43,955 nucleotides of DNA from a virus: UHGV virus genome UHGV-0152227, one strand, 5' to 3'. The notes under the pieces were generated by a model. It saw nothing but the letters and a program-made list of their open reading frames with translations, was not told the origin of the DNA and did not search any database. How positions within the stretch are numbered: position 1 is the stretch's first letter; each line of letters begins with the position of its first letter. This document shows, piece by piece, positions 7,903 through 39,643 of the stretch. Made by a program: the position numbers and the translations under genes.

Positions 7903-8160
7903 ATGCAGCAGTATCACTATCCACTGGAAGACGGATTTACCGAAAGGATTCACACGCCGGGAGGCGTCAGATCACTGGTGGAGGGATCGCACTTGATGAA
8001 ATTACTCCGGGATCTCGATAAGGATGGATTTAATGTCGATGGCCCACTTGCCGAACTGACTGCACTGATTAACTACGTCACCAGCTCACAGATGTCTATG
8101 CAGGATCTGCAAACACATCTCGACTATTGTGCCGAACAATTACGAAAACAAACCAGATAA
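7903..8160 (+). CDS. 85-aa stand-alone homologue of the antirepressor C-terminal domain
   Basis: GGAGA RBS 7 nt before the ATG at 7903. By hand alignment it is about 40 percent identical to the shared C-terminus of the 8476 and 41902 proteins (IH.P.GV..L.E.S.LM.LL..L..DG..V.G..AELT...Y...D.QTH..Y). Confidence 0.7.
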   Translation: MQQYHYPLEDGFTERIHTPGGVRSLVEGSHLMKLLRDLDKDGFNVDGPLAELTALINYVTSSQMSMQDLQTHLDYCAEQLRKQTR

Positions 8161-8191: not shown

Positions 8192-8238
8192 TTACCTTTG
8201 CGGTAAATTTACATCGCACTCCTCTTGTGCCATAGTAA
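8192..8238 (+). promoter_or_regulatory. operator plus promoter of the antirepressor-1 leader
   Basis: Perfect dyad TTACC TTTGC GGTAA (8192-8206), then TTTACA (8208-8213), 17-bp spacer, CATAGT (8231-8236). Confidence 0.5.
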
Positions 8239-8296
8239 TCGGGTACTGGCAAAATCCAGTGCCGGGATTGGCGTCCCGAGTTACTAAGTGGCGCAT

Positions 8297-8320
8297 ACCA
8301 CGCCAGACGTGGTTTTTTTA
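8297..8320 (+). terminator. rho-independent terminator/attenuator inside the antirepressor-1 leader
   Basis: Stem ACCACG (8297-8302) / CGTGGT (8308-8313), loop CCAGA, then a T6 run. Two more hairpins precede it (ACTGG..CCAGT and CGGGA..TCCCG). Confidence 0.7.
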
Positions 8321-8344
8321 TGCGTTAAGCACAGCTATATCCGA

Positions 8345-8420
8345 ATTATGGTGGGCTGGGCAGGGGTCCGAAAGGACGCCGGTACCACTTAGGCCGGTAC
8401 GCCAACCTTGTCCAGTTCAC
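8345..8420 (+). ncRNA. candidate c4-like antisense RNA 1 (boundaries approximate)
   Basis: ATGGTGG (8348-8354) is complementary to CCACCAT (8471-8477, includes the ant1 ATG). CCACTTAG (8385-8392) is complementary to CTAAGTGG (8457-8464, overlaps the SD). A closing helix pairs 8355-8362 with 8409-8416 (6 WC + 2 GU). No plausible ORF. Confidence 0.4.
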
Positions 8421-8475
8421 CACCAGTAATTGGCGTTGCGGTGGTGATTAAAATCACTAAGTGGAGATAACCACC

Positions 8476-9186
8476 ATGGCTAATGCTCAAACTGCCATCT
8501 TCAAATTTGAATCTGTTAACCCTATCCGTTCCATCATTATCGATGGCCAACCATGGTTTGTAGCCCAAGACGTTTGTAGTGCGCTGCGTATCCAAAACGT
8601 CACCCAAGCACTTGAAAAACTGGATGATGATGAAAGGTCTATGTTCAACATAGGGCATGAACATCGTGCAATTTTTGACAGCCGAGTAAAAGAGATCAAC
8701 ATCATCTCCGAGTCAGGCCTCTACACACTGATCCTCCGCTGCCGCGACGCAGTGACACCAGGCACTATCCCCTACCGCTTTCGTAAATGGGTTACAGGTG
8801 AGGTTCTTCCTCAGATCCGCCGCACCGGAAGTTACATTAAAAACTCGCTCCCGCAGGAAGAACGCATAAAGATGGTTGCCGACCAGGTTGCAAACGCCAC
8901 AGCATCAGCAGTGATGCAGGCAATGAAGATAGAGAACAAAACCTACAGCGCCCCACTGAAGCCCGGCTACCGTAGCCTGATTCATTCGCCGTCTGGTGTT
9001 CTCGGCCTGACGGAGAACTCACTGCTGATGAATCTGCTGAACCAGTTACAGGAAGACGGGCACGACGTATCGGGCGCGGCGGCGGAGCTGACCACCATGT
9101 TCTGCTACATCGTCGGTGTGAGCAAATGCCTGCGTGATATCCAGACGCACGCGGAGTACATCAACGACAAGGCTGGGTTCTTCTGA
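8476..9186 (+). CDS. antirepressor 1 (BRO-N N-terminal domain + shared C-terminal domain)
   Basis: BRO-N signature (FESVNPIRSIIIDGQPWFVAQDVCSALRIQN...SESGLYTLILR). GGAG RBS 9 nt before the ATG at 8476. Confidence 0.8.
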   Translation: MANAQTAIFKFESVNPIRSIIIDGQPWFVAQDVCSALRIQNVTQALEKLDDDERSMFNIGHEHRAIFDSRVKEINIISESGLYTLILRCRDAVTPGTIPYRFRKWVTGEVLPQIRRTGSYIKNSLPQEERIKMVADQVANATASAVMQAMKIENKTYSAPLKPGYRSLIHSPSGVLGLTENSLLMNLLNQLQEDGHDVSGAAAELTTMFCYIVGVSKCLRDIQTHAEYINDKAGFF

Positions 9187-9210
9187 CGGGCGGCGGCACA
9201 GGGATGTGCC
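8944..9210 (+). repeat. 267-bp direct repeat, copy 1 (3' third of antirepressor 1 plus downstream hairpin)
   Basis: About 97 percent identical to 42378-42646. About 7 base differences were counted by eye in the coding part, and all are synonymous. Confidence 0.9.
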
Positions 9211-9333: not shown

Positions 9334-9513
9334 ATGCGAAACGAAAAATTGCAGATGCGTAGAGCGCAAGCTGCCGCAAGACGTTCTTTCAATGGAAGCG
9401 TAGAGTACGTAAAAGTTACTATGACAAAAGATCACGCAAGTCGCGTATCCCGCGCTTTCTTTGATTCTCGTAACAATAAGGAAAATTATGAGTTCGTCTG
9501 CGTCGCAGAATGA
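9334..9513 (+). CDS. 59-aa basic protein, candidate antitoxin/regulator (below the ORF-track size cut-off)
   Basis: ATG at 9334 with a GAGGT RBS 6 nt upstream. MRNEKLQMRRAQAAARRSFNGSVEYVKVTMTKDHASRVSRAFFDSRNNKENYEFVCVAE. Its 3' end overlaps the next gene start by 26 nt. Confidence 0.45.
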   Translation: MRNEKLQMRRAQAAARRSFNGSVEYVKVTMTKDHASRVSRAFFDSRNNKENYEFVCVAE

Positions 9514-10033
9514 TAAAAATCAAATTGTCAGATATAAGGGTCGAGTATTGCATACGCAAAATTTCTCGGCCCTTTGTGCATCTGATCTTGAGCTGAAGAA
9601 AGTATCTGATGCCTTTACCCAGTATTGGAAAACGGGATACCATCCATCTCTTGGTAAAGATGCTGCATTTGCTCGTCCGACAGAAATGCTTAAACTAAAT
9701 GTCAGGCATACTCATGTCGATAACCAAGACTATATTCCAGAAGATAGTGATAAAAAACACACTGGTAAAAAATCATCTTGGGATGCATGGAAAAATATAG
9801 CGTCTGTGCAAGTAAAATGCATACCAACAAGTGATTGCTTTTTAGTTTATTCGGTAAATCACAATCGTGATGCGCTGGTTATGTTTTTTGTTGACGCAGA
9901 TGCCCACAACATAACTGAGCAAGAAGAGTTTAAAGAGGCAGCAATCACTATCAGTTATCAATTCTTTCAGAAAACAAAAACAGAACCAATGCCTTTAGAA
10001 GAAGATCTTTTTTCTGATAAATGGAAGGAATAA
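9488..10033 (+). CDS. YafO-like toxin-family protein (tentative), 181 aa
   Basis: AAGGA RBS 6 nt before the ATG at 9488. By remembered alignment to E. coli YafO: SLGKDAAFARP..LNVRHTHV matches IFGRDALYDD..ERVAHIHL, and PTSDCFLVYSV...ALVMFFVDADAH matches RTNDEAHLVYC...AWLLIAILKPEPH. Confidence 0.5.
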   Translation: MSSSASQNDKNQIVRYKGRVLHTQNFSALCASDLELKKVSDAFTQYWKTGYHPSLGKDAAFARPTEMLKLNVRHTHVDNQDYIPEDSDKKHTGKKSSWDAWKNIASVQVKCIPTSDCFLVYSVNHNRDALVMFFVDADAHNITEQEEFKEAAITISYQFFQKTKTEPMPLEEDLFSDKWKE

Positions 10034-10055
10034 GCCCGCGTTGCGGGCTTTTTTG
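10033..10055 (+). terminator. rho-independent terminator after the toxin-like gene
   Basis: Stem AGCCCGC / GCGGGCT, loop GTT, then TTTTTG. Confidence 0.85.
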
Positions 10056-10293: not shown

Positions 10294-10311
10294 AGGCCGC
10301 GAAAGCGGCCT
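10294..10311. terminator. terminator hairpin between convergent genes (T-run only on the minus strand)
   Basis: Stem AGGCCGC / GCGGCCT with a GAAA loop. The minus strand continues TGTTTTTA. Confidence 0.7.
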
Positions 10312-10324
10312 GTGACATGTCACA
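10311..10324. repeat. palindrome TGTGACATGTCACA (copy 1 of the GTGACATGTCAC element)
   Basis: Perfect 14-bp palindrome directly between the stop codon of the 186-aa gene (10325) and the terminator hairpin. Confidence 0.9.
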
Positions 10325-22691: not shown

Positions 22692-22711
22692 GTGGGTCTG
22701 TTACGACCCAC
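22692..22711 (-). other. stem-loop directly downstream of the major capsid gene
   Basis: Stem GTGGGTC / GACCCAC with a 6-nt loop and no T-run. Likely stabilises or attenuates the mRNA. Confidence 0.5.
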
Positions 22712-27047: not shown

Positions 27048-27124
27048 GTGGCATTAGCTCAGTTGGACAGAGCAACCGCCTTCTAAGCGGTTGGTCGCAG
27101 GTTCGAATCCTGCATGCCACGCCA
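27048..27124 (+). tRNA. tRNA-Arg (anticodon UCU, reads AGA), CCA encoded
   Basis: A full cloverleaf folded by hand: acceptor GTGGCAT/ATGCCAC, D stem GCTC/GAGC, anticodon stem ACCGC/GCGGT with loop CT-TCT-AA, T arm GCAGG-TTCGAAT-CCTGC, discriminator G, then CCA. Confidence 0.92.
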
Positions 27125-36718: not shown

Positions 36719-37303
36719 ATGAAAAGTATCCAGGACGTCCGCAGGCAAAATCTCAACGACTTGATCGACCGTGAATTCAATGGTGTTCAGACGCGGATGG
36801 CAGAAAAACTTGGAACTCAGGCAAATCTGGTAAACCGCTGGGCTCTTGGCAAGAAGGTTATCGGCGACCAGGTTGCACGAAAAATTGAAGCTGCCGCCAA
36901 TAAACCCCGTAACTGGCTTGATATCGATCGCTCGCTTTCTCAGGAAGGTTTTCAGCCTGTCGGCCCGAGCGATATAGGTCAGCTGGCGGCTCACAACCTG
37001 GAACGCTGGATGAGCGAAAGCCGCGACCTTTCAACGCAGGGAAAACTACACCGCGCATCCGGCGTCGCCCAGGTGACAATCAGCCGCCTGTTAAACAATG
37101 AGGTCAGCGTTTCCATTTCCACCCTGGAGAATGTTGCATCCGCATTCGGGCGTCACGGCTATGAATTACTGATTCACCCGCACGACCCTGCGACCATCAA
37201 CTATGATCGCTCGCGCTACGCATTGTTACCCGAAACCGAGAAAGCAAAGATCGAAAGTTACATTGAATTTGTCATCAACCAGAACGAAAAAAACAAACAA
37301 TAA
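36719..37303 (+). CDS. prophage repressor with two tandem HTH_XRE domains and no S24 peptidase domain
   Basis: HTH 1 is QTRMAEKLGTQANLVNRWALGKK...PRNWLD. HTH 2 is QGKLHRASGVAQVTISRLLNNEVSVSISTLENVASAFG. No Ser/Lys autocleavage module was recognisable. The RBS is weak or absent. Confidence 0.75.
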   Translation: MKSIQDVRRQNLNDLIDREFNGVQTRMAEKLGTQANLVNRWALGKKVIGDQVARKIEAAANKPRNWLDIDRSLSQEGFQPVGPSDIGQLAAHNLERWMSESRDLSTQGKLHRASGVAQVTISRLLNNEVSVSISTLENVASAFGRHGYELLIHPHDPATINYDRSRYALLPETEKAKIESYIEFVINQNEKNKQ

Positions 37304-37611: not shown

Positions 37612-37911
37612 ATGAACGTTAATCAGCAGAAAAATCTTCAAAAAATCATGCTGGCATTCGACAAGGACTACCGCCTGTCAGAACAGCTATATGACCGACA
37701 AGTTGAACTGATCGAGAGCATCCGGCTTCATCAACTGGCCTCAACTTTCGACGCTGTAACAGGTAAAGGCGTTCGCCAGGAAGTACTGGAGGCCGCTAAA
37801 GACAGTCCAGAGTTCGAAGAACTGATGGATTCCTACCGGCGAGAGGCAATGGCAATTATCGCCCGCTGGGATCTGGCGGATCAGCTTGATGGGCAGAGGG
37901 ACGCGGCATGA
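37612..37911 (+). CDS. hypothetical protein (99 aa)
   Basis: GGGAGGG RBS before the ATG at 37612. Helical and acidic. ATGA overlap with the next gene. Confidence 0.7.
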   Translation: MNVNQQKNLQKIMLAFDKDYRLSEQLYDRQVELIESIRLHQLASTFDAVTGKGVRQEVLEAAKDSPEFEELMDSYRREAMAIIARWDLADQLDGQRDAA

Positions 37912-38729
37912 AACCGGGAATTTATTTCGACATCAGCAACGAAGACTACCACGCCGGTGACGGCGTGAGTAAGTCGCAACTGGACATGGTTGCCAAGAAT
38001 CCGGCGCTTCTTAAATGGGTTCAGGCAGCACCAGAAGACGAAGAGAAAAAGTCTGCACTGGATATGGGAACCGCATTGCACTGTCTGCTTCTGGAGCCTG
38101 GAGAGTTCGACAAACGCTTCATTGTTTCACCGAAATTCGATCGTCGGACGAAACAAGGTAAAGCTGACGAAGAGGCATTTCTTCGTGATATTGCGGATAT
38201 GGGGATTTCGGTACTTGATGCAGAGCAGTGGCGGAAACTGGAGCTGATGCGTGATAGCGCAATGGCTCACCCGGCGGCACGCTGGATGTTGGAAGCTCCT
38301 GGTTACTGCGAAGCATCAATGTACTGGAACGATGAAGAGACTGGTGAGTTGTGCCGCATTCGTCCAGACAAATGGCTGAACGAGCACAACGTGATCGTCG
38401 ACGTGAAAAAGGTTGCAGATATGGACCGTTTTGCACGTCACATCGAGGAATTCCGCTACCACGTGCAGGACGCAATGTACCGCGAAGGCGCAATGAGGGT
38501 TACTGGTCAGCCGCATGGTTTTTTCTTTCTTGCCGTGAGCGAAAGCATTGATTGTGGTCGGTATCCGGTACGCGTGTTCGGGCTGGATGCGCCGGATGTC
38601 GATGCCGGGCACGCTCTGTTCCGCCGGGATCTGAATACCTATCACGAATGCCGCATCAGCGATGAATGGGGCGGCGTGGAAATTATTAAACGCCCTGAGT
38701 GGGCACGCAAACAGGATATGTACGTATGA
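37908..38729 (+). CDS. PD-(D/E)XK exonuclease, RecE (exonuclease VIII) C-terminal-domain-like
   Basis: The patterns YHAGDGVSKSQL, GTALHCLLLEP and IVDVKK are typical of RecE/PDDEXK_1 nucleases. It is paired with recT. Confidence 0.75.
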   Translation: MKPGIYFDISNEDYHAGDGVSKSQLDMVAKNPALLKWVQAAPEDEEKKSALDMGTALHCLLLEPGEFDKRFIVSPKFDRRTKQGKADEEAFLRDIADMGISVLDAEQWRKLELMRDSAMAHPAARWMLEAPGYCEASMYWNDEETGELCRIRPDKWLNEHNVIVDVKKVADMDRFARHIEEFRYHVQDAMYREGAMRVTGQPHGFFFLAVSESIDCGRYPVRVFGLDAPDVDAGHALFRRDLNTYHECRISDEWGGVEIIKRPEWARKQDMYV

Positions 38730-39643
38730 GCAACGAAATTGCAATCACCAATGATGTGTTGGCTATTCGGGGAATCGATGAAGTTACATGGAGCGCTCTG
38801 AAAAACAGTATTTACCCTGGGGCAAAAGATGAATCGGTAATGATGGCAGTCGATTACTGCCGGGCGCGTCAACTCGATCCTCTTCTTAAGCCGGTACACC
38901 TGGTACCAATGAGTGTTAAAGACTCGAAGAGTGGAAAGAATGAATGGCGCGACGTGGTCATGCCTGGCATTGGACTTTATCGCATTCAGGCCTACCGTTC
39001 CGGCGATTACGCAGGCGCTAATGAACCTGAGTTCGGTCCAGATGTAACACAAACGCTTTCAGGAGTGGAGGTTACCTTCCCTCAGTGGTGTAAGTACACC
39101 GTCAGCAAGCGAATGGCAAGCGGGGAAATCGTAGAGTTTAGCGCCAAAGAATACTGGATTGAGAACTATGCAACTGGGGGGCGTGACACATCGGCACCAA
39201 ATGCCATGTGGAAAAAGCGCCCTTATGCGCAGTTGGCAAAATGCGCAGAGGCACAGGCATTACGTAAAGCATGGCCGGAGATTGGTCAACAAGCCACAGC
39301 TGAGGAAATGGAAGGTAAATATATCGACTCACCTGACATTATTGAACGTGACGTAACTCCAAGAAGTCAGGCAAAGCACGGCACAGCATCCAGCATGAAC
39401 AGTCTGATCAACGCTAAAACAGTGAAAAAGCCTGATGAGCAAACGCGTAAAGCGGATAGCCGTGATCCAGAAGAAATGCTGATGGCCTTTACCAGCGCAG
39501 CGATGAATTACAGCACTGTCTCCGAACTGGATAAGGCTTACAAATACATTGCACAAAAACTTTCAGATGATGACGAACTGCTGGCAAAAGCCACCGACGT
39601 TTACAGCGTTCGTCGGGAAGAATTAAACGAAACATCTATGTAA
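38726..39643 (+). CDS. recT: RecT-family single-strand annealing recombinase
   Basis: MMAVDYCRARQLDPLLKPVHLVPM and RPYAQLAKCAEAQALRKAWPE are RecT signatures. The start at 38726 forms an ATGA overlap. Confidence 0.85.
   Translation: MSNEIAITNDVLAIRGIDEVTWSALKNSIYPGAKDESVMMAVDYCRARQLDPLLKPVHLVPMSVKDSKSGKNEWRDVVMPGIGLYRIQAYRSGDYAGANEPEFGPDVTQTLSGVEVTFPQWCKYTVSKRMASGEIVEFSAKEYWIENYATGGRDTSAPNAMWKKRPYAQLAKCAEAQALRKAWPEIGQQATAEEMEGKYIDSPDIIERDVTPRSQAKHGTASSMNSLINAKTVKKPDEQTRKADSRDPEEMLMAFTSAAMNYSTVSELDKAYKYIAQKLSDDDELLAKATDVYSVRREELNETSM

Follow-up and report, generated by a model that had tools for sequence, protein, structure and literature searches.

Two direct repeats of an Escherichia coli prophage are an SPC32H-type antirepressor domain that probably circulates among phage antirepressor cassettes under selection on its protein

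The virus genome UHGV-0152227, a stretch of 43,955 nucleotides which is called the window in the following, is an epsilon15/phiV10-like (Uetakevirus) prophage located between yfgI and guaA of Escherichia coli. It contains a direct repeat which forms the 3' parts of two genes, named antA and antB here, that are otherwise unrelated. We propose that the repeated segment is an antirepressor (Ant) module which circulates among antirepressor cassettes in the phage population, is fused in this genome to a Bro-N and to an ORF6N domain in cassettes controlled by RNA, and is kept under purifying selection at the level of the protein; the probability of this reading is put at about 75%. Judged from its sequence, the repeat represents one 80-residue domain of the type of the Ant protein of Salmonella phage SPC32H together with a trailing hairpin. 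A duplication inside this genome is not the source of the near-identity between the copies, and the observed pattern is one of ordinary phage domain shuffling under strong selection on the protein.

For the determination of the repeat borders the window was scanned for repeats and the copies were aligned. The scan yielded a sole long repeat (8931-9187 and 42366-42622, spacing 33,435 nucleotides). By BLASTN, copy A (8944-9210) and copy B (42379-42646), both on the plus strand and hence in direct orientation, are identical in 257 of 268 positions with one gap (95.9%, E = 5e-126). The repeat pair described in a first-pass annotation of this DNA is thus real, with a start of copy B (42378) that was one base early. 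Both copies comprise 80 Ant-module codons, the stop codon (9184-9186 in antA, 42619-42621 in antB), a spacer of 8 nt in copy A and 9 nt in copy B, and a hairpin of 16 nt, GGCACAGGGATGTGCC, which is identical in both copies as had been noticed before. Three mismatches and one indel are found between stop codon and hairpin, and the perfect runs between the copies measure 101, 53 and 26 bp. The final 80 codons of antA and antB (YSAPL...AGFF) encode the identical protein YSAPLKPGYRSLIHSPSGVLGLTENSLLMNLLNQLQEDGHDVSGAAAELTTMFCYIVGVSKCLRDIQTHAEYINDKAGFF; one codon upstream (T vs E) the two genes are unalignable.

Aligned codon-wise from the stop, the 80 shared codons are 97.1% identical and differ in exactly seven nucleotides, at 8949, 8955, 8973, 9075, 9129, 9147 and 9174. 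All seven are synonymous third-position changes, five transitions and two transversions, which matches the earlier count by eye of about seven silent mismatches. The Nei-Gojobori method, with 57.3 synonymous and 182.7 nonsynonymous sites, gives a synonymous divergence (dS) of 0.13 and a nonsynonymous divergence (dN) of 0; the exact alignment and dN/dS comparison proposed in the first-pass annotation hence revealed no nonsynonymous difference. The probability that seven of seven random substitutions are synonymous amounts to 4e-5 if no transition bias is assumed and to 4e-4 with kappa = 8. Because such a result is improbable under neutrality, purifying selection on the protein is supported, and recent copying is unlikely in view of the dS of 0.13.

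No Pfam or NCBIfam model matches the shared C-terminus, none of the three Ant proteins of the window has a match in NCBIfam, and in PHROGs the C-terminus is found only as phrog_450 and phrog_15539, both of unknown function. A search against solved structures, in contrast, related the module to chain E of PDB entry 5D50 ('Anti-repressor protein', 86 amino acids; E = 3.4e-14). Module residues 1-75 align to residues 5-79 of this chain, i.e., the two are homologous over the whole length, so that the repeat begins sharply at what is the N-terminus of a complete small protein. The entry 5D50 is the Rep-Ant complex of phage SPC32H, which belongs to the same genus as the prophage of the window. In front of the module, antA (8476-9186, plus strand; the mechanical open reading frame (ORF) starts with GTG at 8461) encodes a Bro-N domain (Pfam PF02498, E 1e-19, residues 22-117 of the 241-amino-acid ORF) and a linker, and antB (41902-42621, plus strand) encodes an ORF6N domain (PF10543, E 2.8e-19, residues 12-97) and a linker. 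AntB also matches phrog_1760, 'anti-repressor', with E 1e-91. In AntA the module comprises residues 157-236.

A third Ant domain of the window is free-standing. The small ant gene (7903-8160, plus strand, 85 amino acids) is situated between the tailspike gene and antA and encodes the ortholog of SPC32H Ant (88% identity by tblastn; E 4e-47 to 5D50 chain E) and a paralog of the module, with 42% identity to the C-terminus of AntA over 74 amino acids (E 9e-16). In SPC32H ant occupies the same position and a fusion gene is missing. The records of Salmonella members contain one Ant-domain locus each without exception, those of E. coli members two or three. The prophage repressor Rep (36719-37303, plus strand) matches chain A of 5D50, 'Repressor', in full length (residues 1-190; E 4e-42), and its Pfam hits are helix-turn-helix (HTH_3) domains only. 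The Rep protein of SPC32H binds DNA as a tetramer (PMC9638917).

Upstream of small ant, 22 nt before its start codon, lies the putative LexA box CTGTATAAATATACAG (7866-7881, plus strand), which fits CTGT-N8-ACAG exactly and has only A and T in its spacer. Since the window contains no excess of the pattern (11 found vs 14.8 expected), this assignment rests on where the box lies and on what the gene behind it is homologous to; of all matches, only this one both has an AT-only spacer and precedes a relevant gene, the exact matches at 22698 and 27240 having spacers with G or C. None of the 11 matches lies within 8200-8476 or 41600-41902, and the fused copies are thus without a LexA-box feature by sequence. 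The box together with small ant would represent the SOS arm of induction, directed at a repressor with domains of the helix-turn-helix type only.

The fused genes are preceded by a different kind of element. In cassette A an isrK-type leader (8243-8319, plus strand; Rfam RF01394, 63.5 bits at a gathering threshold of 50), in which a terminator scan found a stem at 8297-8313 followed by a T run, carries the first copy of both target motifs of a C4 RNA, TTGGCGT at 8268 and CTAAGTGG at 8284. The predicted C4 antisense (immunity) RNA follows at 8344-8427 on the plus strand (RF01695, 66 bits, gathering threshold 45, full length). Its segment ACGCCAA is complementary to TTGGCGT at 8268 upstream and 8430 downstream, and its segment CCACTTAG is complementary to CTAAGTGG at 8284 upstream and 8457 downstream, where the motif extends into the GGAG just before the antA start. 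Cassette B comprises a promoter-like site (41656-41685, plus strand; TTGACA, 18-nt spacer, TATATT; 11 of 12 positions, a consensus match only) and a predicted C4-like immunity RNA (41771-41860, plus strand; sRNA-Xcc1, RF02221, 64.2 bits, gathering threshold 53). Here, GTGTTCA of the RNA is complementary to TGAACAC at 41700 and 41860, and CTTTCGA to TCGAAAG at 41711 and 41884, the last motif being located just upstream of the antB start and extending into the AAGGA in front of it.

In both cassettes each target motif hence has two copies, one ahead of the RNA and one in the stretch from the RNA to the start codon. Between cassettes A and B the motifs are of different sequence, and the aligned leaders show no real similarity, so that the two cassettes are not mutual duplicates upstream of the module. 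An icd-like ORF is absent, the gap between RNA and ant gene, about 48 nt in cassette A and 41 nt in cassette B, being too short for it. Each fusion gene thus appears to trail its own C4-type immunity RNA, in the layout of the P1 immI region. Twelve representative related loci were searched with Rfam: isrK and C4 precede every cassette at the A locus, sRNA-Xcc1 precedes the cassettes beside the integrase gene int, and the sar RNA of P22 is found beside the gp42-like cassette in both of the scanned loci of this kind (2/2).

The immI region of phages P1 and P7 is composed of the c4 antisense RNA, icd and ant, and the CI RNA/seqA system of P4 is related to it. The cassettes of the window, which are also similar to this P4 system, share with immI the promoter, the target motifs, an RNA of the C4 family, the second motifs at the ribosome-binding region and the antirepressor gene. 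They differ from it in that no icd-like upstream ORF is evident, the antirepressors have no detected similarity to P1 Ant, two cassettes with distinct RNA specificities are present in one genome, and processing of the RNA and repression by it are predictions here, whereas expression of P1 Ant is regulated by C4 antisense RNA (PMC8201110). Profiles of C4 and isrK have been reported to detect an immunity RNA and its target site, relatives of CI and seqA, beside genes of the 'Bro network', and Bro-N (PF02498) and ORF6N (PF10543) are among the 10 Bro-network models of that study (PMC10111431).

For a survey of the module in the phage population IMG/VR was scanned with the module, which yielded 79 loci; together with second copies in their flanks and in other fetched loci, 106 copies were compared. 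A search for protein homologs with the 80-amino-acid module returned only 18 short proteins (54-104 amino acids) and no full-length fusions, and the architectures were therefore taken from IMG/VR. Four unrelated N-terminal types precede the module: Bro-N (73 copies), AntA-like (21), the 232-amino-acid type of gp42 of TL-2011b (nine) and ORF6N (three). Downstream of the module 15 different contexts were observed, all of which break at the hairpin. A weakly similar linker helix is found upstream of the module in all four gene types (window 8931-8943 and 42331-42378 and IMG/VR loci; AVMQAMKIENK, AIMEAIKLEDK, MLDALREAIKTQTK), and in the ORF6N and AntA-like genes this linker is of high mutual identity (FMPAIMEAIKLEDKKE). 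Pairs of gene types differ in the 5' edge of their homology, which argues for several independent joining events.

A 'Bro network' of phage proteins that swap domains, among them Bro-N, ORF6N, KilA-N, AntA, ANT and P22_AR, was reportedly described by Iyer and colleagues in 2002. The cassettes examined here resemble it in that Bro-N, ORF6N, AntA-like and gp42-like domains, the last annotated as 'anti-repressor Ant' in TL-2011b, are exchanged in front of one C-terminal module, and in that the cassettes are located in variable zones with immunity RNAs. In contrast to the network as described, the C-terminal segment is without a Pfam or NCBIfam model, yet tied to a solved antirepressor of known mechanism, and this tie gives the respective branch a defined effector domain.

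The polymorphism among the copies points to selection on the protein, as the first-pass annotation had proposed from the two copies of the window. Of the 60 polymorphic module sites in the 106 copies 50 are synonymous, and in 20 copies which had not been chosen by protein identity 34 synonymous sites are opposed to four nonsynonymous ones. Among proteins of the Bro-N type the N-terminal regions share 76% amino acid identity on average, the modules 99.6%. Conservation at the nucleotide level, be it of an RNA gene, a recombination site or another DNA element with the coding identity being incidental, would explain the conserved hairpin at the 3' edge and the constant break point, but is the least credible of the alternatives considered. 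The 50 synonymous polymorphic sites compare with about 57 synonymous sites in total, very few nonsynonymous positions vary, and the fourfold site 9147 shows all four bases among the copies; moreover, no Rfam match lies inside the repeat, and the hairpin is no stabler than shuffled sequences and degraded where a strong terminator follows.

Mean pairwise differences between modules range from 5.5 to 9.2 nucleotides regardless of the pairing of N-terminal types, with the exception of the three ORF6N copies, which have a mean of only two mutual differences. Pairs from the same genome differ on average in 7.5 positions and pairs from different genomes in 7.8; random between-genome sets were equal or lower in 35% of the draws. 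The A/B pair of the window is therefore a typical draw from the population, and neither homogenisation within genomes nor type-specific lineages left a sign among the copies compared. The A cassette of phage HEMP4 is orthologous to that of the window (98.5% identity), with two module differences to copy A, while copy B has seven differences both to the B copy of HEMP4 and to copy A.

A recent duplication or conversion within this genome, in which the 3' end of one ant gene was copied onto the other and the silent-only pattern arose by chance, could account for the sharp edge of high identity at 8944/42379, and the weaker linker similarity upstream of it (AVMQAMKIENK vs AIMEAIKLEDK) looks like a conversion tract that ends inside older homology. 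This edge, though, falls where the free-standing Ant has its N-terminus, and is therefore a domain boundary. A dS of 0.13 is not recent, seven silent changes out of seven have a chance probability below 5e-4, pairs within a genome are no closer than pairs between genomes, and copy A is nearer to its HEMP4 counterpart (two differences) than to copy B (seven). We consider such an event very improbable, and the first-pass annotation was right in viewing the repeat as more than a recent duplication or gene conversion.

The comparison with HEMP4 also illustrates how cassettes are exchanged. Its int-side locus contains an AntA-like N-terminus and another RNA specificity in front of the same module and hairpin, and homology to the window stops at 41350 and restarts at 42331. 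Promoter, RNA and N-terminal domain thus appear to have been replaced as a unit between conserved flanks, of which the right one is the module. The ORF6N gene of the B type, in turn, is found at the A locus of other full-length prophages (e.g., locus L003).

In the int-side leader of HEMP4 (about 1577-2500 of locus L086, minus strand) the motif AACTTCAAAG occurs twice, once right before the start codon, and its complement CTTTGAAG is located between the two copies in a stretch which resembles C4-type RNAs. By its sequence, this leader would give the module a third RNA specificity.

As a tentative extension, which we regard as rather unlikely on present evidence, the Ant module and the hairpin may serve as a fixed right homology arm for cassette exchange at two hot spots, beside small ant and beside int, so that promoter, RNA specificity and N-terminus are swapped and the Rep-directed effector remains constant. 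If this were true, cassette exchange would diversify which resident prophages silence the antirepressor of an incoming phage, in a heteroimmunity race on RNA specificity in the style of P1 and P7, and the effector, itself defined, would gain a second activity from the Bro-N, ORF6N and AntA domains.

Among the relatives a third kind of cassette was observed. The P22 immI region consists of arc, the sar RNA and ant. In TL-2011b (locus L001, 31060-34115) a gene for an Arc-like repressor lies directly upstream of gp42, which ends in the same module, and in two IMG/VR relatives (L036 and L073) the sar RNA is located beside the same gp42-type gene; this third cassette is present in many relatives. 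It is convergent with the Bro-N gene at a distance of 1.3-1.7 kb, and the repeats there are inverted and therefore substrates for inversion, not for deletion. The window lacks the gp42-type cassette, its homology to TL-2011b stopping at 10323. In phiV10 (DQ126339.2, 19540-20230; locus L090) the record splits the Bro-N antirepressor gene into two annotated ORFs, p23 and p22; the module aligns in two parts, with a nucleotide match that spans about 16 nt fewer in the record than in the query. The fused Ant domain of phiV10 appears to be disrupted by sequence and the small ant gene (p24) intact.

The 3' edge of the module is defined by the hairpin, a 6-bp stem with a GGGA loop. It occurs exactly twice in the window, at 9195-9210 (hairpin A, plus strand) and at 42631-42646 (hairpin B, plus strand; between the convergent genes antB and int), with zero occurrences expected by chance. 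In 102 of the 106 related copies it is recognisable after the stop codon, and homology between contexts ends at its 3' end or within a base of it. It is degraded (GGCACAGGGACGTGCA) in copies with a strong terminator about 20 nt further on. Hairpin A folds at -10.1 kcal/mol, and neither hairpin is stabler than shuffled sequences (z -0.09 and -0.51). A function as terminator on the plus strand is not claimed, as the terminator scan did not call it and the stability is at shuffled level; on the minus strand hairpin B was flagged as terminator-like for int.

Four observations suggest that Rep is the target of the fused module: the module is homologous to the solved antirepressor, the genome encodes the cognate Rep, module and Rep diverge to a matching degree in three lineages, and a close relative of AntA has an effect when overexpressed. 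Identities of module and Rep are 100/100% in E. coli, 79/78% in Enterobacter phage Tyrion and 55/45% in Klebsiella phage Kp4865-1. ORF4 of phage ZX5 is 81% identical to AntA, its module part being identical, and overexpressed ORF4 brought the titre of the prophage down from 1e9 to 1e6 and the repressor transcripts down by 75% (PMC9782041).

Several points weigh against the proposed reading as a whole. The covariation of module and Rep is based on just three lineages. Small Ant is 88% identical to SPC32H Ant, yet Rep is only 42% identical; the identities of Ant and Rep are thus loosely coupled, and the target of the module may partly differ. With about 40% identity to small Ant, the module could, e.g., be directed at the repressor of another prophage, and binding of Rep by the fused module is something we infer from sequence. 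Furthermore, 79 of the 106 copies entered the set by being the best protein matches, and this inflates the apparent conservation of the protein; the subset of 20 copies found by position eases this bias, but these copies were still found by nucleotide similarity. The hairpin, finally, is thermodynamically unremarkable (z -0.09) and not a canonical terminator, and its role is read from its constant position only.

Under the proposed reading, all three Ant domains would inactivate one non-cleavable repressor, Rep. The route via small ant would respond to DNA damage, and the antA and antB routes would be gated by RNA, e.g., opened on infection or superinfection before the immunity RNA builds up. 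The module would spread by recombination among cassettes, any two copies differing by about seven silent changes, and its protein would be kept invariant by purifying selection, probably because it has to fit a conserved Rep.

All elements of this arrangement are known in kind, namely the Rep/Ant pair of the SPC32H type, immunity RNAs of the P1/P4 type, domain swapping as in the Bro network and mosaic exchange at module boundaries. The antirepression system of SPC32H was reportedly described by Kim and Ryu in 2013 and by Kim and co-workers in 2016, and its free-standing ant lies behind a LexA box like small ant of the window. Both phages have in common the genus, a homologous Rep and an 85-amino-acid Ant whose gene is divergent from the tailspike gene, and the fused module is homologous to SPC32H Ant as well. 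In contrast, SPC32H and the other Salmonella members have the free-standing Ant only, in one place per record, whereas the window contains two extra C-terminal copies on Bro-N and ORF6N proteins, about 40% identical to small Ant and predicted to be under the control of immunity RNAs instead of a LexA box. A further study describes a non-cleaved repressor which is inactivated by a small SOS-induced antirepressor in Gifsy and Fels prophages and by Tum of coliphage 186 (PMC3121763); the likeness to these systems is one of logic, and no sequence relationship is claimed.

In the accessible literature we found no statement that equates the C-terminus of the E. coli Bro-N, ORF6N and AntA antirepressors with the SPC32H Ant domain, and none of one prophage with three Ant-domain copies under three controls. 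The window thus offers three copies of a structurally solved antirepressor domain in one prophage under three predicted controls, one of them a LexA box and the others C4-type RNAs that differ from each other. The uncharacterised C-terminus of common E. coli antirepressors of the Bro-N, ORF6N and AntA types gains a testable function, the binding of Rep of the SPC32H type, and the system is suited to asking what the swapped N-terminal domains add. With regard to annotation, the module without a Pfam or NCBIfam model could receive one.

The first-pass annotation had viewed the repeats as substrates for a deletion of the intervening 33.4 kb, mediated by RecA or RecET. Their main role would then be the formation of defective remnants between yfgI and guaA, with the lysis genes, the tailspike gene, small ant, an ant gene and int as predicted content. 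The prerequisites are present: the direct repeats match without interruption over 101 and 53 bp, genes for RecE- and RecT-like proteins are present in the prophage, and recombination at the module is evident on evolutionary time scales. A query of the predicted junction (5' part of antA, module and int side) and the reciprocal one were built and searched in all complete E. coli genomes. No match with at least 80% coverage of the predicted Bro-N::module-int junction was found in 5,426 genomes, a negative result which is weak because only 23 of these genomes have an int-adjacent module copy at all; 21 of the 23 also have at least one further copy. The module itself was found in 556 E. coli genomes, with roughly 1,100 copies in all. 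The reciprocal junction (ORF6N::module followed by yafO) likewise had no match covering at least 80% of the query in these genomes, and matches at 72% coverage were rejected as excised circles, being alleles of the ORF6N type which full prophages carry at their A locus.

The IMG/VR survey gave the same picture, with none of the 106 related copies pairing a Bro-N N-terminus with the int context. Both genomes with a single, int-adjacent copy (H76 and H86) are full-length prophages and not remnants, and HEMP4 (deposited as complete circular genome, unverified) and about 21 E. coli genomes retain the two-copy layout. If the exchange took place in a free circular phage genome, two circles would result, neither of them viable. 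The direct orientation and the 101-bp run thus stand, but the deletion product and the remnants sought among related genomes did not appear. Two details of the earlier proposal have to be corrected. The recombinant would not produce a chimeric Ant protein, since both modules specify identical residues and AntA would be encoded unchanged, and the 33.4-kb interval does not hold all structural genes, as the tailspike gene (4936-7707) lies outside it together with the lysis genes and small ant. A deletion at low frequency is possible though without support, and as the main role of the repeats we regard it as improbable. For the stability of the prophage this implies that the repeat, with the large deletion unseen in complete genomes, is no sign of an unstable element.

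The remaining features of the window correspond to the prophage setting, the closest records being HEMP4, TL-2011b and ZX5. Positions 1-1873 are host chromosome (yfgG-yfgH-yfgI of E. coli), and each of the 5,426 complete E. coli genomes contains window 1-1900. The attL core at 1874-1890 (minus strand) is an exact match in 17 of 17 positions to the att core ATTGAGTGGGAATGATT of vB_EcoP_ZX5 (PMC9782041). No att repeats shared by the two ends of the window were found, because attR lies beyond it. The tyrosine integrase gene int (42655-43905, minus strand; Pfam Phage_integrase and Arm-DNA-bind_3) is located near the right end, and guaA follows just past this end in related lysogens according to the gene context (loci L004 and L084). 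To the left of copy A are the lysis cassette (about 1.9-3.8 kb) and the tailspike gene, the latter on the minus strand. The RecE-like exonuclease (37908-38729, plus strand) and the RecT-like annealing protein (38699-39643, plus strand) were assigned by colinearity with 'exonuclease VIII' and 'RecT-like ssDNA annealing protein' of TL-2011b and by the RefSeq annotation of related prophages. The phage record of TL-2011b includes the same host genes (yfgG-yfgH-yfgI), one of which is called 'DNA methyltransferase' by RefSeq, which looks like a misannotation.

In the segment 9211-10323 a promoter-like sequence (TTGCAG, 17-nt spacer, TACTAT) lies directly 3' of hairpin A and precedes cargo that differs among relatives. 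In the window the cargo consists of a small ORF (9334-9513), a YafO-family toxin (9461-10033, Pfam E 1e-5) and a small predicted membrane protein, with terminator-like hairpins at 10032-10050 (plus strand) and 10294-10311 (minus strand); the segment looks like a moron insertion hot spot. A gene for tRNA-Arg (anticodon tct) was found inside the prophage at 27048-27124 by ARAGORN and Rfam, and related phages and prophages have tRNA-Arg at the same place. Between 32148 and 33740 there are three families of short direct repeats (32-54 nt, 83-100% identity, spacing 0.7-1.1 kb). This region holds variable early genes in relatives, and the short repeats may be paralogous gene segments.

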